Origin: Candidatus Oxydemutatoraceae bacterium
GTDB taxonomy: Bacteria > Pseudomonadota > Gammaproteobacteria > Poriferisulfidales > Oxydemutatoraceae
NCBI GenBank assembly: GCA_965220085.1
Contig: CBDCOZ010000003.1
Location: forward strand, 928,001 to 992,000
Reading direction: 5' to 3'
Length of the DNA: 64,000 nt
Below, piece by piece: positions 54,745-63,039 of the stretch. Position 1 is the stretch's first letter, and each line of letters opens with the position of its first letter. The notes under the pieces were generated by a model. The model was given only the letters and a program-made list of their open reading frames with translations, was not told where the DNA came from and made no database searches. Made by a program: the position numbers and the translations under genes.

Positions 54745-55245
54745 AAACATGCCGGATTCTTGGCTTTAACAAAGGCCGACAGGCAATATCAGCATATCGG
54801 AAACGCCGCCGCAACCTGCCGCCGGAGGCGGTCGCAGAGATTTGACAAAAAAGCGCTTGCAAAGGACTCACTTTGTGGTATAGTGCACGGAATCCATGAA
54901 AAAAGGAGGGCAACGCTTGAACTTAGAAATGACCGAATTTATGAAACAGTGCGACATTAAACAGTTGCATGGAGCACAAACAGTGATGGAACGCAAACAA
55001 TTTAAGAAATCACAAACAACAAAGTTGTTTGTGCTCTTACTACTGTGCTCTTACTACCGTGCCTCATCAAATGTTGCTTGTGCACATATGCCGTACGGTC
55101 ACATCTATCAGGAGTAAAACAATGATCCAACAAAACAACATGAAATTACGAATTACTAATACTACCCCCCCCCCCCCCCCCCCCTCCTTCGCATAGGCGG
55201 ACAGCGCTAACTCGGCTTAGTCTCTGGTCGCTGGTTCTGCCGGCG
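54745..55245 (+). repeat. Upstream/leader region duplicated at ~56705-57288
   Basis: Shared blocks such as GCTTGCAAAGGACTCACTTTGTGGTATAGTGCAC and CACATATGCCGTACGGTCACATC.. TCAGGAGTAAAACAATGAT. Confidence 0.85.
54857..54884 (+). promoter_or_regulatory. Putative sigma70 promoter; identical copy at 56819-56846
   Basis: TTGCAA-16 bp-TATAGT with TG extension, upstream of both poly-C genes. Confidence 0.55.
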
Positions 55246-56454
55246 TTGTTTGCTTGCGCTTGTATCTTCGCCGCGAGCGCCGCACACGCACAAGCCGCTT
55301 GCCCCGCCGGGCAAACGCGAGTCACGAATCAGGCCGGCGCCACCGGTTGCTTTCTTGATGCCAATGTCAAAATTCTGACGGACTGTGAAAACAGCGGATG
55401 GATTGGTCGCGAAGATGTGGCTCTGCCCCCCGATACAGGTTTAGCCTGCGCCATTCGCAGCAGGTTGTTGGGGGGATTAGGCTCTAGCGGCCCGAGCGCA
55501 GGGTTGTGCCTGATTGTCACCGACAATACTTTTCTTCCCACTGTTTTTCCCTCTTGCACCGCAATGTACGGTAACCCGCCGGTTTTTCCGAAAGCGGAGG
55601 ACCATCCTAATGTTGTCAGCCCGATACACCCGAGCGTGGATGGTAGCGGAGATGATTATTTCCACGCAAACTGCGATCGTGACGGGGGTGTCCCCGGCGG
55701 TTATCCGCCGGACCACAACATCAATGGCGAAACCGAATGCGCCTGCGATTTGGACTCGCACATCGGCGAATGGCCGGACTGCGTTGCCGCGCCGGATTTG
55801 ACCCGCGCCCAACGGCAGGGGGTTGGCACATGCGCGAGTCAAGGGTGGAATGTTTCCACCGCCACTGACGCCATCAAATGCGAAATTCCGCTGACTTCGG
55901 GCGGGATGGATTTTCCCGGCGGTTGCTTTTTTGACGAGGGTACGCCGCTGTGCGCGGATGTGTTCGGAGAGACATACGCCTTTCCGGATGGAACTTCGCC
56001 GACGCTCGTGCGGAGTCTTTACGACGGCTTTAACGCCATAAGCTCAGATTCCGCAGAGGTCAGAACCGCGGCGAGAGTTTATCGGGATGCGGTTTTGGCG
56101 CGATACGAAGGCGACCCGAACTATCTTGTCGCGCCGCTCGCCAACATAGAGGGCAACTCCGACAACAATAATCTGGCAATTGTCCGCAGCGTGTTGTTGC
56201 CAGTGTTCTCCGCGAACGACAAGATTCCTTTTGACTTTGTGGGAAGCGGGACAACCGACGCAGAGCGCCTTGCGGCGTTGCCCGGCTTAATCACGGCGGC
56301 GTTTGAGATGATTCCGGTTCGGGACCCGTATGTTTTCAACTGCGGCGCGGGCATGATTCCGGCAACGGTCAACACTGTCGGCGCGACGGAATGCGCTCGC
56401 CAACTGGACCTGCGCTTGCGCTTGCGCGTTTTCCTTGAAGGCCCGTTGCGGTAG
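55122..56454 (+). pseudogene. Cys-rich exported protein, copy 1; frameshifted at the poly-C tract (phase-OFF state or sequencing error)
   Basis: AGGAG RBS and ATG at 55122 are out of frame with the body (ORF 55246..56454); C20 at 55165-55184 plus TCCT leads to TAG at 55194. Confidence 0.8.
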
Positions 56455-56840
56455 CGCGAGTGCTCCCCTTGCAGGACTTGTGCGCACACTCCCCTTGCGG
56501 GAGTCGACAAGCTAAGGGGGCTGGCGGGTAGCCTGACTACTCCGACACGTTGCTATCGCACCATCCCCGCAGGCGCACTGGCGGGAGTGTTGGGTGCGCA
56601 AGCGATATGTGAACACTGCTTAAAGCATGTTTAAGCGGAGGGAAGGGGAGTATTATGGGCGCACAAGGGGAGACAGATACGCTTGCAAATGACTGAAACA
56701 TGTCGGAAACATGCCGGATTGCCGGCTTCGGCAAAGGCCGACAGGCAATAGCAACGCATCGGCAACGCCGCCGCAAGCGGTCGCCGGAGGCGGTCGTTGC
56801 GATTTGAAAAAAAAGCGCTTGCAAAGGACTCACTTTGTGG

Positions 56841-56966
56841 TATAGTGCACGAAATCCATAAGGGGAGAGCAACAGTTGGACTTGTAAATAACTGAACTTA
56901 TGATATAGTGCACGGAATCCATAAGAGGAGAGCAACGATTGAACTTATAAATGACGGAATTTATGA
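56841..56966 (+). repeat. Two tandem 63-bp units beginning at the -10 element
   Basis: TATAGTGCACG..ATCCATAAG.GGAGAGCAAC... at 56841 and 56904; a single unit upstream of copy 1. Confidence 0.85.
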
Positions 56967-57164
56967 TATGGTGCGCCATTAAACAATCCACAAATAGTTT
57001 ATGGAATACAAACAATTTGAAGAAACCACAGACAATTAGATTAAACACACACAAACAACCGAGTGTTGTTTGTGCCTCTTATTACTGTGCTCTCATATCG
57101 TTTGTAGCTTCTTATGTTGCTTGCGCACATATGCCGTACGGTCACATCTTTCAGGAGTAAAACA

Positions 57165-58490
57165 ATGATACAACAAAACAACATGAAATTACGAATTACT
57201 AATACTACCCCCCCCCCCCCCCCCCCCTCGCATAGGCGGACAGCGCTAACTCGGCTTAGCCTCCGGGCGCTGGTTCTGCCGGCGCTGTTTGCTTGCGCTT
57301 GTATCTTCGCCGCGAGCGCCGCACACGCACAAGCCGCTTGCCCCGCCGGGCAAATGCGAGTCACGAATCAGGCCGGCGCCACCGGTTGCTTTCTTGATGC
57401 CAATATCAAAATTCTGACGGACTGTGAAAACAGCGGATGGATTGGTCGCGAAACTAGGGGGGTAACCCCCGCCGTAGGCTTAGCCTGTAGCATTCGCAGT
57501 AGATTGCTTAGGAGGCTCGTCCTTGGCGGCCAGAGCGCAGAGCTGTGCGTAATTGCCACCACCAATACTAGTGTGATCGATTTTATTCCCTTTTGCACTA
57601 CAATGTACGGTAACCCGCCGGTTTTTCCACAAGCGGAGGACCATCCTAATGTTAGCAGCCCGATACATCCGAGCGTGAATAACAGCGGAAAGGACTATTT
57701 CGTGGCAAACTGCGATCATGGCGGGGATGTCCCCGGCGGTTATCCGCCGACCCACAACCTCAACGGCGCAACCGAATGCTCCTGCGATTTGGACTCGCAC
57801 ATCGGCGAATACCCGAACTGCGTTGCCGCGCCGGACTTAACCCGCGCCCAACGGGAGGGGGTTGGCACATGCGCGAGTCAAGGGTGGAATGTTTCCACCG
57901 CCACCGATGCCATCAAATGCGAAATCCCGCTGACTTCGGGCGGGGCGGACTTTGACGGCTGCTTTTTTGACGAGGGCACGCTGCTGTGCGCGGATGTGTT
58001 CGGAGAGACATACGCCTTTCCGGATGGAACTTCGCCGACGCTCGTGCGGAGTCTTTACGACAGCTTTAACGCCATAAGATCAGATAACGCCGAGGTCAGA
58101 ACCGCGGCGAGAGTTTATCGGGATGCGGTTTTGGCGCGGTACGAAAGCGACCCGAACTATCTTGTCGCGCCGCTCGCCAACATAGAGGGCAACTCCGACA
58201 ACAATAATCTGGCAATTGTCCGCAGCGTGTTGTTGCCAGTGTTCTCCGCGAACGACATGATTCCTTTTGACTTTGTGGGAAGCGGGACAACCGACGCAGA
58301 GCGCCTTGCGGCGTTGCCCGGCTTAATCACGGCGGCGTTTGACATGATTCCGGTTCGGGACCCATATGTTTTCAACTGCGGAGCGGGCATGATTCCGGCA
58401 ACGGTCAACACTGTCGGCGCGACGGAATGCGTTCGCCAACTGGACCTGCGCTTGCGGTTGCGCCTCTTTCTGGAAGGCCCGTTGCGGTAG
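57165..58490 (+). CDS. Cys-rich exported protein, copy 2; poly-C tract in frame
   Basis: AGGAG RBS; C20 at 57208-57227 reads T-P6; signal peptide ending AHA-QAA; ends LRLRLRLFLEGPLR. Confidence 0.85.
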   Translation: MIQQNNMKLRITNTTPPPPPPSHRRTALTRLSLRALVLPALFACACIFAASAAHAQAACPAGQMRVTNQAGATGCFLDANIKILTDCENSGWIGRETRGVTPAVGLACSIRSRLLRRLVLGGQSAELCVIATTNTSVIDFIPFCTTMYGNPPVFPQAEDHPNVSSPIHPSVNNSGKDYFVANCDHGGDVPGGYPPTHNLNGATECSCDLDSHIGEYPNCVAAPDLTRAQREGVGTCASQGWNVSTATDAIKCEIPLTSGGADFDGCFFDEGTLLCADVFGETYAFPDGTSPTLVRSLYDSFNAIRSDNAEVRTAARVYRDAVLARYESDPNYLVAPLANIEGNSDNNNLAIVRSVLLPVFSANDMIPFDFVGSGTTDAERLAALPGLITAAFDMIPVRDPYVFNCGAGMIPATVNTVGATECVRQLDLRLRLRLFLEGPLR

Positions 58491-58638
58491 CGCGGGTAAC
58501 CGGCGGCAGAGTAAGAAGAGTGTTATGAGGCGCACAAGAAGATGAGACAGGATCCAAAGATACTTGCGAATGACTTTGTGGCGGAAGCGCTCCTTGCGCA
58601 ACTGCCTTCACGAAACATAAACCAGAAGGAGAATTACT

Positions 58639-59931
58639 ATGAACTGCCAAATTTCTGATACTGCCCCTCGGCATCGGCGGGCAACGCTGACCCGGCTTAG
58701 TTTCCGGGCGCTGGTTCTGCCGGCGCTGTTTGCTTGCGCTTGTATCTTCGCCGCGAGCGCCGCACACGCACAAGCCGCTTGCCCCGCCGGGCAAACGCGA
58801 GTCACGAATCAGGCCGGCGCCACCGGTTGCTTTCTTGATGCCAATGTCAAAATTCTGACGGACTGTGAAAACAGCGGCTGGGTTGGTCGCGAAGATGCGG
58901 CTCTGCCCCCCGACACAGGTTTAGCCTGCGCCATTCGTAGCAGACTGTTGAGGGGATTAGGCTCTGGCGGCTCTAGCTCAGGGTTGTGTCTGATTGTCAC
59001 CGACAATGCTGTTTTCCCCACTTTTATTCCCTTTTGCACCGCAATGTACGGTACCCCGCCGGTTTTTCCGAAAGCGGAGGACCATCCTAATGTTGTCAGC
59101 CCGATACATCCGAGAGTGGATGGCAGCGGAAATGATTATTTCCACGCAAATTGCGATCGTGACGGGGGCGTCCCCGGCGGCTATCCGCCGGACCACAACC
59201 TCAACGGCGCAACCGAATGCTCCTGCGATTTGGACTCGCACATCGGCGAATACCCGAACTGCGTTGCCGCGCCGGACTTAACCCGCGCCCAACGGGAGGG
59301 GGTTGGCACATGCGCGAGTCAAGGGTGGAATGTTTCCACCGCCACCGATGCCATCAAATGCGAAATCCCGCTGACTTCGGGCGGGATGGACTTTGACGGC
59401 TGCTTTTTTGACGAGGGTACGCCGCTGTGCGCGGATGTGTTCGGAGAGACATACGCCTTTCCGGATGGAACTTCGCCGACGCTCGTGCGGAGTCTTTACG
59501 ACAGCTTTAACGCCATAAGATCAGATAACGCCGAGGTCAGAACCGCGGCGAGAGTTTATCGGGATGCGGTTTTGGCGCGGTACGAAAGCGACCCGAACTA
59601 TCTTGTCGCGCCGCTCGCCAACATAGAGGGCAACTCCGACAACAATAATCTGGCAATTGTCCGCGGCGTGTTGTTGCCAGTATTTTCCGCGAACGACATG
59701 ATTCCTTTTGACTTTGTGGGAAGCGGGACAACCGACGCAGAGCGCCTTGCGGCGTTGCCCGGCTTAATCACGGCGGCGTTTGACATGATTCCGGTTCGGG
59801 AGCCGTATGTTTTCAACTGCGGCGCGGGCATGATTCCGGCAACGGTCAACACTGTCGGCGCGACGGAATGCGCTCGCCAACTGGACCTGCGCTTGCGGTT
59901 GCGCGTTTTCCTGGAAGGGCCGTTGCGGTAG
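58639..59931 (+). CDS. Cys-rich exported protein, copy 3; no poly-C tract
   Basis: AAGGAG RBS; same signal peptide core; ends LRLRLRVFLEGPLR. Confidence 0.88.
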   Translation: MNCQISDTAPRHRRATLTRLSFRALVLPALFACACIFAASAAHAQAACPAGQTRVTNQAGATGCFLDANVKILTDCENSGWVGREDAALPPDTGLACAIRSRLLRGLGSGGSSSGLCLIVTDNAVFPTFIPFCTAMYGTPPVFPKAEDHPNVVSPIHPRVDGSGNDYFHANCDRDGGVPGGYPPDHNLNGATECSCDLDSHIGEYPNCVAAPDLTRAQREGVGTCASQGWNVSTATDAIKCEIPLTSGGMDFDGCFFDEGTPLCADVFGETYAFPDGTSPTLVRSLYDSFNAIRSDNAEVRTAARVYRDAVLARYESDPNYLVAPLANIEGNSDNNNLAIVRGVLLPVFSANDMIPFDFVGSGTTDAERLAALPGLITAAFDMIPVREPYVFNCGAGMIPATVNTVGATECARQLDLRLRLRVFLEGPLR

Positions 59932-60076
59932 CGCGAGTAACCGACGGAGCAGGAGAGTGTTATGAGATGCACAAGAGGATGAGACAGGATCCAAAGATAC
60001 TTGCGGATGACTTTGCGGCGGAGAAGGGGAGTGTTATGAGGCGTAAGAGGATGAGACAGGATGTGAAGTATGTACA

Positions 60077-60270
60077 GTTTAATGAGGCACGGTGATAAGA
60101 GCACAGTAATAAGAGCACAGTGATAAGAGCACAAACAACTCAGTTGTTTGTGTGTCCTTGATTAGTTGTTTGTGTGTCCTTGATTAGTTGTTTGTGTGTC
60201 CTTGATTAGTTGTTTGTGGATTGTTTAATGAGGCACGGTGATAAGAGCACAGTGATAAGAGCACAAACAA
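60077..60270. repeat. Short tandem repeat cluster (14-bp GTGATAAGAGCACA units; 22-bp AGTTGTTTGTGTGTCCTTGATT x3)
   Basis: Directly visible; reverse-complement related to 55011-55070 and 56971-57095. Confidence 0.9.
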
Positions 60271-60304
60271 CTTAAGAAACCACAAACAGTTTGCGGAGTT
60301 TGAA

Positions 60305-60604
60305 GCGGGTTTGTTGCCGACCCACATTCGGGTATTCAATAATCATCGGATAAAATATCTGCCATGGTTTAATACCCAACGACCACACTGCGGATTGAGG
60401 CTCCAAACACCTATGAGACAAATTACAAAATATCTGCCCAAAGTTTCCAATATGTCATGGCATCATACATTTAATAATCATCGGATAAAATATCCGCCAT
60501 GGTTTAATACCCAACGACCACACTATGGGTTGAGGCTTCAAACACCTATGAGACAAATTACAAAATATCCGCCTCAGGCATCCGATATGTTATGGCATCA
60601 TACG
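60305..60604 (+). mobile_element. Decayed IS481/IS3-type transposase 3' end, tandemly duplicated (135-bp unit)
   Basis: WFNTQRPHxGLRLQTPM twice (60335-60469, 60470-60604), resembling the YNxxRPHxxL..TP integrase-core C-terminus. Confidence 0.65.
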
Positions 60605-60704
60605 CGGGGTGGCGTTGCGGGCGCGGGTGAGGCATAATGGCATCGGCGCGGGATGGGTCTGCGCTGATTTCTTCTGGCGAAACATTGACAATACGGGGCA
60701 TGCT

Positions 60705-62933
60705 ATGAAAAAGTTTTTTGATGATTTGTTTGGGGTCGCGCGGGTTGCGGGGCGGGTTGCCGCTCTCGCTCTGGCGCTGGCATCATCGCCGGCCATGGGG
60801 CAGAAGGTTACGCTGGTGCCATCGGATGCGAGCCCCATGGAGAATGCCGGCGCCATCACATTGACGGCGACCGCGGACTCTGCGCCATCCGCCGACATCA
60901 CCATCACCGTGACATCATCGGCATCCTACCTGAGAGTGCCCGCGGCCAACACCCTGACCATAGCATCGGGTGCCACCGCATCCACCGGCAGCGGGCTGTC
61001 GCTGACCCTGGTGGATGACATAGTGGCCGGACAGGACAGGACGGCCGTGCTGTCGGCCACCATAGCCAGCACCGACACCGGCGCGGCCGCCCCCGATGAT
61101 GTCACCATCACCATAGTGGAGGACGACGAGTTGCGGATGAATCTGCAGACCAGCAGCCTGTGGCGCGAGGGCAGCGAAGAGCAGGCCTGCGTCACATTCT
61201 CCACGCCTTTTGCCGGCTCCATAACGATGGGCTTCACTGCGACGGCGACCGCGCTGGGCGAGATATTTGACCCCACCGCCAGCACCCGCGCCGAAATCAC
61301 CGAGAACAACTATGAGGACGGCGACTTGGCGCTTCCAAACCCGCCCTCCGTCACCGCCGTCGCCGGTAACACCCAGGTGTGCTTCGAAATCGGCGTCAGG
61401 GACAATGACGAGTCGGACGGCCCGCGATTCTTCACCCTGTCGTTTGGCGATATCAGAACCGAGACCATTAAGTTCCCCATAGTCGGCGACAACACCGCCA
61501 TCCAGCAGATTGCGGATGATGATAATACGCCCGCCACCGGCGCGCCGGCCGTCACAGCGGCGGACAATGCCGACCTGACAATGGCGGGGCCCAATGAGGA
61601 CAGCCTGCTGACCGCCGCTCGCGGCGCCATAGACGATGACGATGGCCTCATCACATTCGCCCCGACCTGGGTCTGGCAACAGGGCGATGCCGCCGATGGC
61701 GTCTTCACCGACATAATATCGGCCACCGCCGCCACCTTCGCGCCCCTGCAGGCCCATGTCGGCAAGTTTCTGCGCGCCTGTGCCACCTTTGACGATTACG
61801 CCGGCAAAAGCGAGACCCGTTGCTGGACCTCGGTCGCCGCCGTCGTCAATGTCGATGATGCTCCGGTTGCGATGGGCAACACCATCCATGTGCCGGTGGG
61901 CGGCAGCTATACGTTCTCGGCGGATGACTTCCTCTTTGCCGATGAGGACGACGATGCGCTGGTCAGCGTTGTCATAGAGGGCGCACCCACCGCCGGCACC
62001 CTGAGCGTGGCGGGCATCTCGTTGACCGCCAACAGTGCGGCCGTGACTGTGTCCGCCGCCGGCATCAACAACAACAGCATCGTATACCAACCGGCGAGCG
62101 GCCAGTCCGCTACCGCTGGCTACGCCACATTCACATTTAATGTGACTGCCAACGCCAAGACCAGCGACAACGATGCCGCCATGACCATAGACCTGGTGCC
62201 ATCTGCCAACACGACGGCCACCGGCGCGCCGACGGTGACGGCTACAACGGGCACCGCCGCCTATGACGAGAATGTGGAACTGACCGCATCCGCCACCGGC
62301 GTAACCGATGCCAACGGCATCCCCGCCCACACCCGCATCTGGCAATGGCAATCCGCCGCCGCCGCCAGCAGCACCCCGACCGCCAGCGCCTACGCCGACA
62401 TCCCCGGGGCCGCCGCCGCCAACTTCACGCCCCGGCGGGTCCATGTCGGCCAATACATCCGCGTCTGCCTCCGCTTCACCGATGGCATAGGCACCACAGA
62501 GGGCGGCGACGCCGCTTCCCCCACGCTGTGCTCCGTCGGCGCCATCATCGCCAGAGCCAATTCGGTGAGTGTGCCGACTACCGCCGACGAATCAAAGCCC
62601 TATGTTTTCAAGCTATCCGACTTCATGTTCCCGGAGGACACCGGCAATCCGCAAAGCATAACCATACGCACCGCCATAGCATCCTACAAGGGCACATTGC
62701 ACAACGGCAGCGACCCGGTGACCGCCGGCGCCACAGTGACCGCCGCCGAGTTGCGCAACGGCGACCTTGCTTTCTATCCCGCGGGCAGATTCGCCGCCGC
62801 CTTCAACTTCGCCAGTTTCGCCTACACCGTGAACTATGGCGGCACAGACACCGAAACCCGCACCATGAACATACATCTGGTAGAGCGCCTGCGCTTGCGC
62901 TTGCGCGTATTCCTCGAAGGCCCCCTGCGGTAG
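60705..62933 (+). CDS. Large exported Ig/cadherin/Calx-beta-like repeat protein (putative adhesin)
   Basis: Signal peptide ending AMG-Q; T/A/D-rich beta sequence; ITIVEDDE and IGVRDNDE Calx-beta-like motifs; two NTxATGAPxVTA...WxWQ repeats; ends LRLRLRVFLEGPLR. Confidence 0.85.
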   Translation: MKKFFDDLFGVARVAGRVAALALALASSPAMGQKVTLVPSDASPMENAGAITLTATADSAPSADITITVTSSASYLRVPAANTLTIASGATASTGSGLSLTLVDDIVAGQDRTAVLSATIASTDTGAAAPDDVTITIVEDDELRMNLQTSSLWREGSEEQACVTFSTPFAGSITMGFTATATALGEIFDPTASTRAEITENNYEDGDLALPNPPSVTAVAGNTQVCFEIGVRDNDESDGPRFFTLSFGDIRTETIKFPIVGDNTAIQQIADDDNTPATGAPAVTAADNADLTMAGPNEDSLLTAARGAIDDDDGLITFAPTWVWQQGDAADGVFTDIISATAATFAPLQAHVGKFLRACATFDDYAGKSETRCWTSVAAVVNVDDAPVAMGNTIHVPVGGSYTFSADDFLFADEDDDALVSVVIEGAPTAGTLSVAGISLTANSAAVTVSAAGINNNSIVYQPASGQSATAGYATFTFNVTANAKTSDNDAAMTIDLVPSANTTATGAPTVTATTGTAAYDENVELTASATGVTDANGIPAHTRIWQWQSAAAASSTPTASAYADIPGAAAANFTPRRVHVGQYIRVCLRFTDGIGTTEGGDAASPTLCSVGAIIARANSVSVPTTADESKPYVFKLSDFMFPEDTGNPQSITIRTAIASYKGTLHNGSDPVTAGATVTAAELRNGDLAFYPAGRFAAAFNFASFAYTVNYGGTDTETRTMNIHLVERLRLRLRVFLEGPLR

Positions 62934-63039
62934 TGCGAGTGACCTGCGGCAGAGAAGGGGAGTATTGTGGGATGCGCAAGGAGTGAGACAAGACACAAAT
63001 GAATGCATTCAATGAACGCTTTAATCGTCTCTTCGGGAA

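Follow-up and report, generated by a model that had tools for sequence, protein, structure and literature searches.

The tagged genes of the window

Here we analyze a 64,000-nucleotide stretch (the window) of the genome of a Candidatus Oxydemutatoraceae bacterium (GenBank assembly GCA_965220085.1, contig CBDCOZ010000003.1, positions 928,001 to 992,000), in which four open reading frames (ORFs) of the + strand, ending at 56454, 58490, 59931 and 62933, share the C-terminal sequence LRLRLR(V/L)FLEGPLR directly before the stop codon. A degenerate DNA pattern for FLEGP gives four matches in the window versus 0.07 expected, a number reached in 0/100 shuffles. The likely start codons are the ATGs at 55122, 57165, 58639 and 60705, each followed by a segment resembling a signal peptide, as judged by eye and with a home-made heuristic rather than a dedicated predictor. 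Genes 1-3 are Cys-rich paralogues (87-92% identical), and gene 4 is unrelated to them. The original prediction described four genes with a signal peptide and a common tail; the tail is present in all four, as are the signal peptide-like N-termini, while gene 1 is out of frame at a poly-C tract.

Gene 1 (55122..56454, + strand) has AGGAG before its ATG and a long frame with signal peptide and tail (LRLRLRVFLEGPLR, 56410..56451, stop codon 56452-56454). A poly-C tract of 20 bases (C20, 55165..55184, + strand) lies between the start codon and the h-region of the signal peptide, and the frame is broken across it in the present assembly, in which the gene is apparently phase-OFF. Gene 2 (57165..58490, + strand; signal peptide-like N-terminus ∼57165-57335, with the cleavage site placed by eye) contains an identical C20 tract (57208..57227, + strand), which is translated as a Pro run. 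Its frame continues through the tract, and the gene is apparently phase-ON; its tail is LRLRLRLFLEGPLR (58446..58487, stop codon 58488-58490). Raw reads at both tracts are poly-C artefact reads only. Gene 3 (58639..59931, + strand, 430 aa) is without a poly-C tract, and has a signal peptide-like N-terminus (∼58639-58776) and the tail LRLRLRVFLEGPLR (59887..59928, stop codon 59929-59931). The Cys-rich family has no homologue in the genomes of 18 relatives, and its Atlas scores are at most 0.84.

Gene 4 (60705..62933, + strand) encodes an Ig/cadherin-like protein of 742 aa from ATG 60705 (MKKFF...), with a signal peptide-like N-terminus (∼60705-60800) followed by tandem β-sandwich domains. Pfam Cadherin_3 scores 25.3 bits (just under the cut-off of 25.5), and Foldseek matches are to cadherin EC1-2-like domain pairs. 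The tail LRLRLRVFLEGPLR (62889..62930, stop codon 62931-62933) starts 4 residues past the last modelled β-strand (TRTMNIHL). When the 3'-ends of the four genes are aligned, the similarity of copy 4 to the other three begins at the first tail codon, and within the tail the differences are synonymous (GTA/GTT, CTC/CTT/CTG, CCC/CCG, CTG/TTG). These differences had been taken earlier as a sign of selection on the peptide, a view borne out by this alignment and by the genome-wide variation in codons and the three stop codons described below.

AlphaFold2, run on the C-terminal 230 residues of gene 4 with a 21-row alignment, predicts two β-sandwich domains (mean predicted local distance difference test score (pLDDT) of 88.5). 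Their last strand covers residues 207-214; the tail (215-230) is modelled as coil, and its pLDDT declines from 76 to 64. For gene 3 the overall prediction is of low quality (mean pLDDT 57), although a helical domain (280-385) is confident; the tail is disordered (pLDDT ∼30). In both models the tail lies beyond the last domain, which makes it, as modelled, an appendage rather than the final strand of a fold.

Extent, selection and carriers

The source genome assembly comprises 2.49 Mb in three contigs. A six-frame scan finds 221 F[LIVM]EG[PA] motifs, 215 of which are followed by exactly LR-stop, and a reversed control pattern has no match in the genome. The stop codons of the 215 tails are TAG (136), TAA (51) and TGA (28). 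Codon positions 1 and 2 are invariant or nearly so and position 3 varies, with up to 8 codons per position: all six Leu codons occur at -6, four codons are used for Gly, and the final Arg is encoded by CGA (118), CGG (94) or CGC (3). The use of all three stops together with the varying third positions means that selection acts on the tail peptide and on its terminal position. Read-through or recoding is rejected because all three stop codons are in use. An RNA or DNA structural element is likewise rejected, the tail RNA being no better folded than shuffles (mean z -0.3, 3% below -2, for 70/215 sampled tails). In a home-made simple ORF set, 170/2034 ORFs are tagged, and these hold 154,077/754,856 residues (∼20%).

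The consensus of 214 tails of the source genome is [LIV]-R-L-R-L-R-[LIV]-F-L-E-G-P-L-R, and that of 90 foreign tails ending in Gln is [ILV]-R-[ILV]-R-x-[KR]-V-F-L-E-G-P-L-Q. The residues F, L, E, G, P and L are each present in 214/214 or 213/214 tails of the source genome and in 90/90 foreign Q-type tails. Hydrophobic and basic residues alternate over nine positions, giving one leucine face and one arginine face, and in many proteins the tail is preceded by a flexible linker (e.g. SSGSS, EPSEPA, QEPDQEP). The tail contains no transmembrane helix and no terminal aromatic residue, as first described, with only LR or LQ after FLEGP and the last residue being R or Q.

The 184 tagged ORFs of at least 100 aa fall into 52 sequence clusters (70% mutual coverage). 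The largest is an Ig/cadherin-like superfamily of 97 members, the Cys-rich family of the window has 20 members, and many carriers are singletons, including giants of 3,973 to 15,133 aa. A Pfam scan of 20 representatives (the seven giants by their last 1,500 aa only) detects domains in 15/20, namely Cadherin, fn3, He_PIG, PPC, Cadherin_4, Flg_new_2 and Peptidase_S8 with Calx-beta, and gives no match in 5/20.

The tag is restricted to exported proteins. By a home-made heuristic rule, a signal peptide-like region is in frame in 159/188 tagged stop-to-stop frames of at least 100 aa (∼85%), as compared with 359/1864 untagged ORFs. The 159 comprise 124 frames with an in-frame start and a signal peptide-like h-region, and 35 that have such an h-region but lack a start in frame further upstream (a poly-C tract is present in 33 of the 35); a further 11 have a signal peptide-like segment only in another frame upstream, and 18 have none. 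The proposal that unrelated exported proteins carry the tail thus extends to the 52 clusters, and the carriers are enriched for signal peptides rather than being cytoplasmic. Domains were also scanned in 224 untagged ORFs (201 with a signal peptide-like start and no further transmembrane segment, plus 23 others in the region of the system for type II secretion (T2SS)). Among these, the recognizable periplasmic and outer-membrane housekeeping proteins (DsbA/C, TolB, SurA-like, LolA/B, penicillin-binding proteins, BamA, LptD, porins) are untagged.

Three proteins carry the tag near the N-terminus (C1:23868-25292, C1:36358-38001 and C3:1171425-1173515). They share a layout consisting of a common signal peptide (MKKLL...VWA), ∼20 residues, PLRLRLRVFLEGPLR, a GGS-rich linker and the domains, which are PPC repeats in two and trypsin-like, at a weak score, in one. 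The tag thus does not require a free carboxyl end.

Of the 184 tagged genes, 82 have a poly-C tract of 9-28 bases located between start codon and signal peptide h-region, and the whole genome contains only 90 C/G homopolymers of at least 9 bases and 2 of A/T. The 33 tagged frames with a tract that lack an in-frame start, and the placement of the tracts, suggest that a very large surface repertoire undergoes slipped-strand phase variation. A literature search on phase-variable homopolymeric cadherin genes of sponge symbionts gave nothing on the present lineage.

The copies are often grouped, with 142/184 tagged ORFs in same-strand arrays of two to twelve, and 31 tails lie on short fragments, some of them as tandem copies of gene ends. 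Such copies also form chains of mini-frames of 22-51 codons, each with a terminal tail (C3:513720-514188, C3:908934-909438 and C3:1303832-1303949). The sequence CGCGAG occurs directly 3' of the stop codon in ∼60-80% of the copies in the source genome (window positions 56455-56463, 58491-58499, 59932-59940 and 62934-62942) and in ∼60% of the 52 cluster representatives; the same does not hold in relatives.

The motif was originally to be sought throughout this genome and in relatives, and such a search shows that it is genome-wide, occurs in other genera too, and is not limited to the window locus. A count of FLEGP-x-x-stop in 53 genomes of the order gives 214 copies in the source genome, 34, 16, 15, 15 and 12 in five genomes of the sister genus, and 5 in one genome of a third genus; the other 46 have 0-1, the same as a control pattern. 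A variant ending in FLEGPLQ is found in 5/5 sister-genus genomes. The carriers in relatives are giant and small secreted proteins (tails e.g. ...VRVRVRVFLEGPLQ, ...IRIRTKVFLEGPLQ, ...LLRVKLFLEGPFR), and the DNA conservation stops at the stop codon, the 3' DNA being unrelated to that of the source genome.

A DNA pattern for the Q-variant, searched in one genome per prokaryote species, matches 74 loci. Sixty of them are in four records of metagenome-assembled genomes (MAGs) of Candidatus Oxydemutatoraceae or Ca. Porisulfidus, and the other 14 are scattered single matches in unrelated taxa; by our own arithmetic, ∼35 chance matches are expected in the collection searched. An Oxydemutator species is listed among sponge symbionts (PMC11685487), and PMC9123188 takes Porisulfidus as outgroup for SUP05. 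A profile of 81 tails searched against 1.84 billion representative proteins gives 123 matches (E≤0.001), 18 of them from the source genome, with the motif at the very end in 122 and internal in one. Those matches that carry a name come from Ca. Oxydemutatoraceae MAGs and are annotated as ‘hypothetical’ or ‘fibronectin type III domain-containing’. A similar xVFLEGP strand had been suggested to occur in Bacteroidota surface proteins; this was not borne out, as none of the 123 inspected profile matches looks Bacteroidota-like, and outside one gammaproteobacterial family the DNA pattern has only the 14 scattered singles. A word-indexed protein search with the last 40 residues as query returned only 14 matches, all apparently the source genome's own.

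The four window proteins, the only ones scanned against NCBIfam, match 0 families at E≤1, including any described sorting domain, and a full-text literature search for strings of the tail motif found no relevant description. The tail is undescribed in NCBIfam and in the literature and protein searches made.

Several other features of the window were also noted. A short motif, roughly GAGTGTTATGAG-GCGCACAAG-GATGAGACAGGAT, recurs 3' of tagged genes (about 56470-56900, 58500-58620 and 59940-60280), sometimes twice, and looks like a dispersed intergenic repeat. In the ORF at 60311-60637 (+ strand), the segment …NHRIKY.PWFNTQRPH.GLRLQTPMRQITKY… is present twice in tandem; the ORF may be a duplicated transposase or integrase tail, a similar frame elsewhere in the genome having matched Pfam rve_3. 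The segment 36001-50000 has a G+C content of 0.45-0.49, as compared with 0.53-0.61 in the rest of the window, and is possibly foreign.

Candidate roles of the tag

The tail is probably a portable tag, specific to this lineage, by which Sec-exported proteins are sorted to or docked at the surface. The signal peptide would bring the protein to the periplasm, and the passenger would exit via machinery common to all relatives, of which the T2SS is the only general outer-membrane route found. The tail, with the consensus hydrophobic-R-hydrophobic-R-x-(R/K)-hydrophobic-F-L-E-G-P-L-(R/Q), may then act as a free cationic amphipathic β-strand of nine residues, capped by the invariant FLEGP turn, and retain the protein at the outer membrane, either paired with a conserved envelope component or inserted next to one. 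A strand of nine residues is about the length spanning an outer membrane. The strict invariance of FLEGP makes a protein receptor more likely than simple binding to lipopolysaccharide. The proteins served by the tag would form a very large surface repertoire, adhesin-like and enzyme-like, of which many members are probably phase-variable.

Relatives without the tag end comparable secreted repeat proteins in other modules (L247 in G009, L242-L246 in G001 and L248 in G006). These alternative ends are of two types, one GlyGly-CTERM-like (Gly-rich motif, helix and RRRR) and the other consisting of dockerin-like D-x-D-x-D-G segments. The presence of other C-terminal modules on these proteins fits a C-terminal position that serves sorting or docking in the family.

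With respect to export, the carriers have signal peptide-like N-termini and the genome has a complete gsp operon; one TolC-family gene was found in addition to the T2SS. Besides gspA/B and the complete gspC-M operon, the region C3:449817-475553 encodes a Wzy_C-TPR protein, a GspN-like protein, a GlyGly-CTERM protein of 1369 aa and rhombosortase. A complex prediction of GspC (residues 60-283, with a weak PDZ-like end) with an alignment of the 30-residue tail, run without controls, gave no answer (score 0.00, mark 0.32) and counts neither for nor against contact. The domain scan of the 224 untagged ORFs brings no unexplained machinery to prominence, and the neighborhoods of tagged genes in four relatives have no common partner gene.

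A number of results weigh against a sorting or docking role. The original prediction envisaged a cognate transporter co-occurring with the tag, and none emerges from presence/absence tests of candidates among relatives; no cognate transporter or receptor gene was found, and 0/10 candidates so tested track the tag. The family comprises 7 tag-positive and 12 tag-negative genomes; GspD is present in 19/19 and a GspN-like gene in 18/19, those lacking the tag included, and the T2SS does not co-vary with the tag among family genomes. Rhombosortase (TIGR03902) is over the cut-off in 18/19, tag-positive and tag-negative alike, and Omp85 (BamA) is a single copy in 19/19, again including tag-negative genomes. 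As possible receptors, a 449-aa barrel-like protein and an Asp-protease-TPR protein were rejected, both being present in 5/5 genomes tested without tracking the tag. Also rejected were a 635-aa protein encoded beside an N-tagged gene (0/5 genomes tested) and a 276-aa protein encoded beside tagged giants of a relative (matched in 16/19 genomes, also inside the giants of tag-negative genomes). Among the foreign profile matches, a signal peptide-like start is present in only 37/105, many of these being fragments, and the heuristic leaves the 18 tagged frames without a signal peptide-like segment and the 11 with one in another frame only. To our knowledge, type II secretion of proteins of 10-15 thousand residues would be unprecedented. 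A terminal R or Q is not the usual ligand of PDZ or BamA-type strand receptors. All machinery tested occurs in genomes without the tag as well. The tag's reader would be a universal envelope component, or one that was missed.

Some further genes were considered alongside these candidates. A secreted S1 protease family was rejected as a partner, being present in the source genome only; there are 11 matches to a secreted trypsin-like (Trypsin_2) family ending in IDNLNRYCSDSN (C3:189880-221028 and 330328-337636), found in no other of the 19 family genomes. A barrel-like C-terminal frame (end ...LQARVRW, C3:835474-836031) lies out of frame behind a surface-protein gene; it has no Pfam match at E≤1, and none of the 18 other family genomes has a homologue. 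A second fragment (C3:1518606-1518761) follows directly after a tail fragment.

A more specific version of the sorting reading holds that the tail is a linear transferable signal on folded or bead-like Sec-exported proteins, necessary and sufficient both for export via a universal machine (most plausibly the T2SS) and for surface fixing by one β-strand of outer-membrane length, without lipid, transmembrane helix or its own barrel. We regard this as unlikely, and we know of no linear signal of the T2SS. If true, it would define a new class of Gram-negative surface anchor and provide a handle on the long-open question of T2SS substrate recognition.

The physical character of the strand and its constancy bear on two other explanations. 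Tails of different proteins could pair with one another into intermolecular β-sheets, the leucine faces being packed together and the arginine faces lying on anionic polymers, to build a shared coat or matrix. Such self-assembly is suggested by the hydrophobic/basic alternation over nine residues, the occurrence of the tag at either protein end and the lack of a receptor gene among those found, yet F-L-E-G-P-L is more strictly invariant than generic sheet formation requires and a Gly-Pro cap would restrict sheet growth, and we consider it decidedly unlikely. The same cationic strand might instead bind sulfated or anionic glycans or membranes of an animal host, making the tail an adhesive or entry element. 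In keeping with this, the public tag-bearing records are titled as Ca. Oxydemutatoraceae and Ca. Porisulfidus MAGs, the adhesion domains that make up the passengers are eukaryote-like, and an Oxydemutator species appears in a list of sponge symbionts (PMC11685487). Against this, the diverse passenger domains already supply adhesion and the invariant FLEGP is left unexplained, and a host-directed motif is the least probable of the readings weighed here.

The genomic arrangement and the terminal position invite two others. The tail might have no role as a protein signal and be a 3' cassette kept by gene conversion or passenger shuffling. The same-strand arrays (142/184 tagged genes), the 31 short tail-only fragments with tandem tail arrays, and the conservation of CGCGAG after the stop in ∼60% even of the 52 cluster representatives all point this way. 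Such an artefact of recombination or ancestry is nevertheless very unlikely: the variation follows the codon period, up to 8 codons occurring at a position and all three stops being used; the tag is carried by unrelated domain families and kept across genera despite differing flanking DNA; and 42 bases with synonymous scatter are a poor recombination substrate. The tail could also determine turnover or quality control, by setting the periplasmic fate of the protein via tail-specific or HtrA-type proteases, or as a pro-piece clipped after Glu by a secreted serine protease. The source genome has two HtrA-type proteases with PDZ domains in addition to the 11-copy trypsin-like family, one N-tagged protein is itself trypsin-like (weak score), and the extreme C-terminal position is nearly universal. 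We find this highly improbable, given that the 11-copy family is absent from the 18 other family genomes, all tag-positive ones included, that the N-terminal tag with its linker speaks against the need for a free C-terminus, and that equipping 20% of the coding capacity with a degron would come at a high cost.

A surface sorting or docking tag, the reading we prefer, would be of interest for several reasons. C-terminal sorting tags have earlier led to new envelope machineries, including sortase, exosortase, rhombosortase and the type IX system. In a reduced, symbiont-type genome, ∼8% of genes, holding ∼20% of coding residues, bear the present tag. As it has 14 residues without any feature of a known class, some envelope component must read it, and this reader, once found, would explain the display of a huge, probably phase-variable adhesin repertoire and might yield a very short tag for surface display. 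For annotation, a simple tail profile picks out the family's surface proteome, at present labelled ‘hypothetical’ or ‘fibronectin type III domain-containing’.

Comparison with known sorting and docking systems

Several known C-terminal elements differ from the tag in basic respects and were set aside. The β-signal of the β-barrel assembly machinery, or the last strand of an outer-membrane barrel, is rejected on the basis that the tail ends in R or Q and is preceded by soluble β-sandwich or helical domains; genuine barrel proteins of the source genome end in F. A type I (RTX-type) signal does not fit the signal peptide-like N-termini of 159/188 frames, and the genome has 0 matches to RTX repeats (PF00353) and one TolC-family gene. 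The classical autotransporter domain (type Va, PF03797) has no match in the source genome and none over the cut-off in 19/19 family genomes. Dockerin, which pairs with cohesin, is a duplicated calcium-binding module of ∼60-70 aa, and the tail has 14 aa without the D-x-D-x-D-G motif.

GlyGly-CTERM/rhombosortase, PEP-CTERM/exosortase and LPXTG/sortase resemble the tag in placing a short C-terminal signature on many unrelated Sec-exported proteins of one genome, and in their expansion in particular lineages. In these tripartite signals, a motif is followed by a hydrophobic transmembrane helix and then by basic residues, and a dedicated membrane protease or transpeptidase is required. In the tag the order is reversed, an amphipathic basic strand coming before the motif, with no helix and only LR or LQ after FLEGP. 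No cognate sorting enzyme co-occurring with the tag was found in a search that tested rhombosortase and left exosortase and sortase unsearched. The source genome also encodes a classical GlyGly-CTERM protein, beside rhombosortase and the gsp operon, with a quite different tail, and the GlyGly-CTERM/rhombosortase system coexists with the tag and is distinct from it. GlyGly-CTERM proteins are reported to be T2SS substrates retained at the surface (PMC6219818).

The C-terminal domain of type IX secretion is like the tag in being a C-terminal signal on a large share of the secretome, giant adhesins included. It is a folded domain of ∼70-100 residues, cleaved on export and confined to Bacteroidota, whereas the tag has 14 residues, is coil in the models and belongs to a gammaproteobacterial family. 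The type IX domain is reported to be needed for outer-membrane export and surface attachment of Sec-dependent proteins (PMC5053529).

Donor-strand complementation (chaperone-usher and type V pili) and engineered tag/catcher pairs have in common with the tag a short terminal strand of alternating hydrophobic residues that might complete the sheet of a partner, a flexible linker and tolerance of either end. Usher (PF00577) has 0 matches in the source genome, and no chaperone or pilin family is seen among the 224 scanned untagged ORFs, the chaperone family not having been searched genome-wide. The likeness would be one of principle only, with no open-groove protein identified. Cationic amphipathic β-strand peptides, both designed and natural, such as [XZ]n peptides and lipopolysaccharide-binding loops, show a similar basic/hydrophobic alternation over about nine positions, and peptides of this kind bind anionic membranes as β-strands and self-associate (PMC8757834). 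These peptides are free and degenerate in sequence, while the tag is genetically fused to its carriers and ends in an invariant FLEGPL cap.

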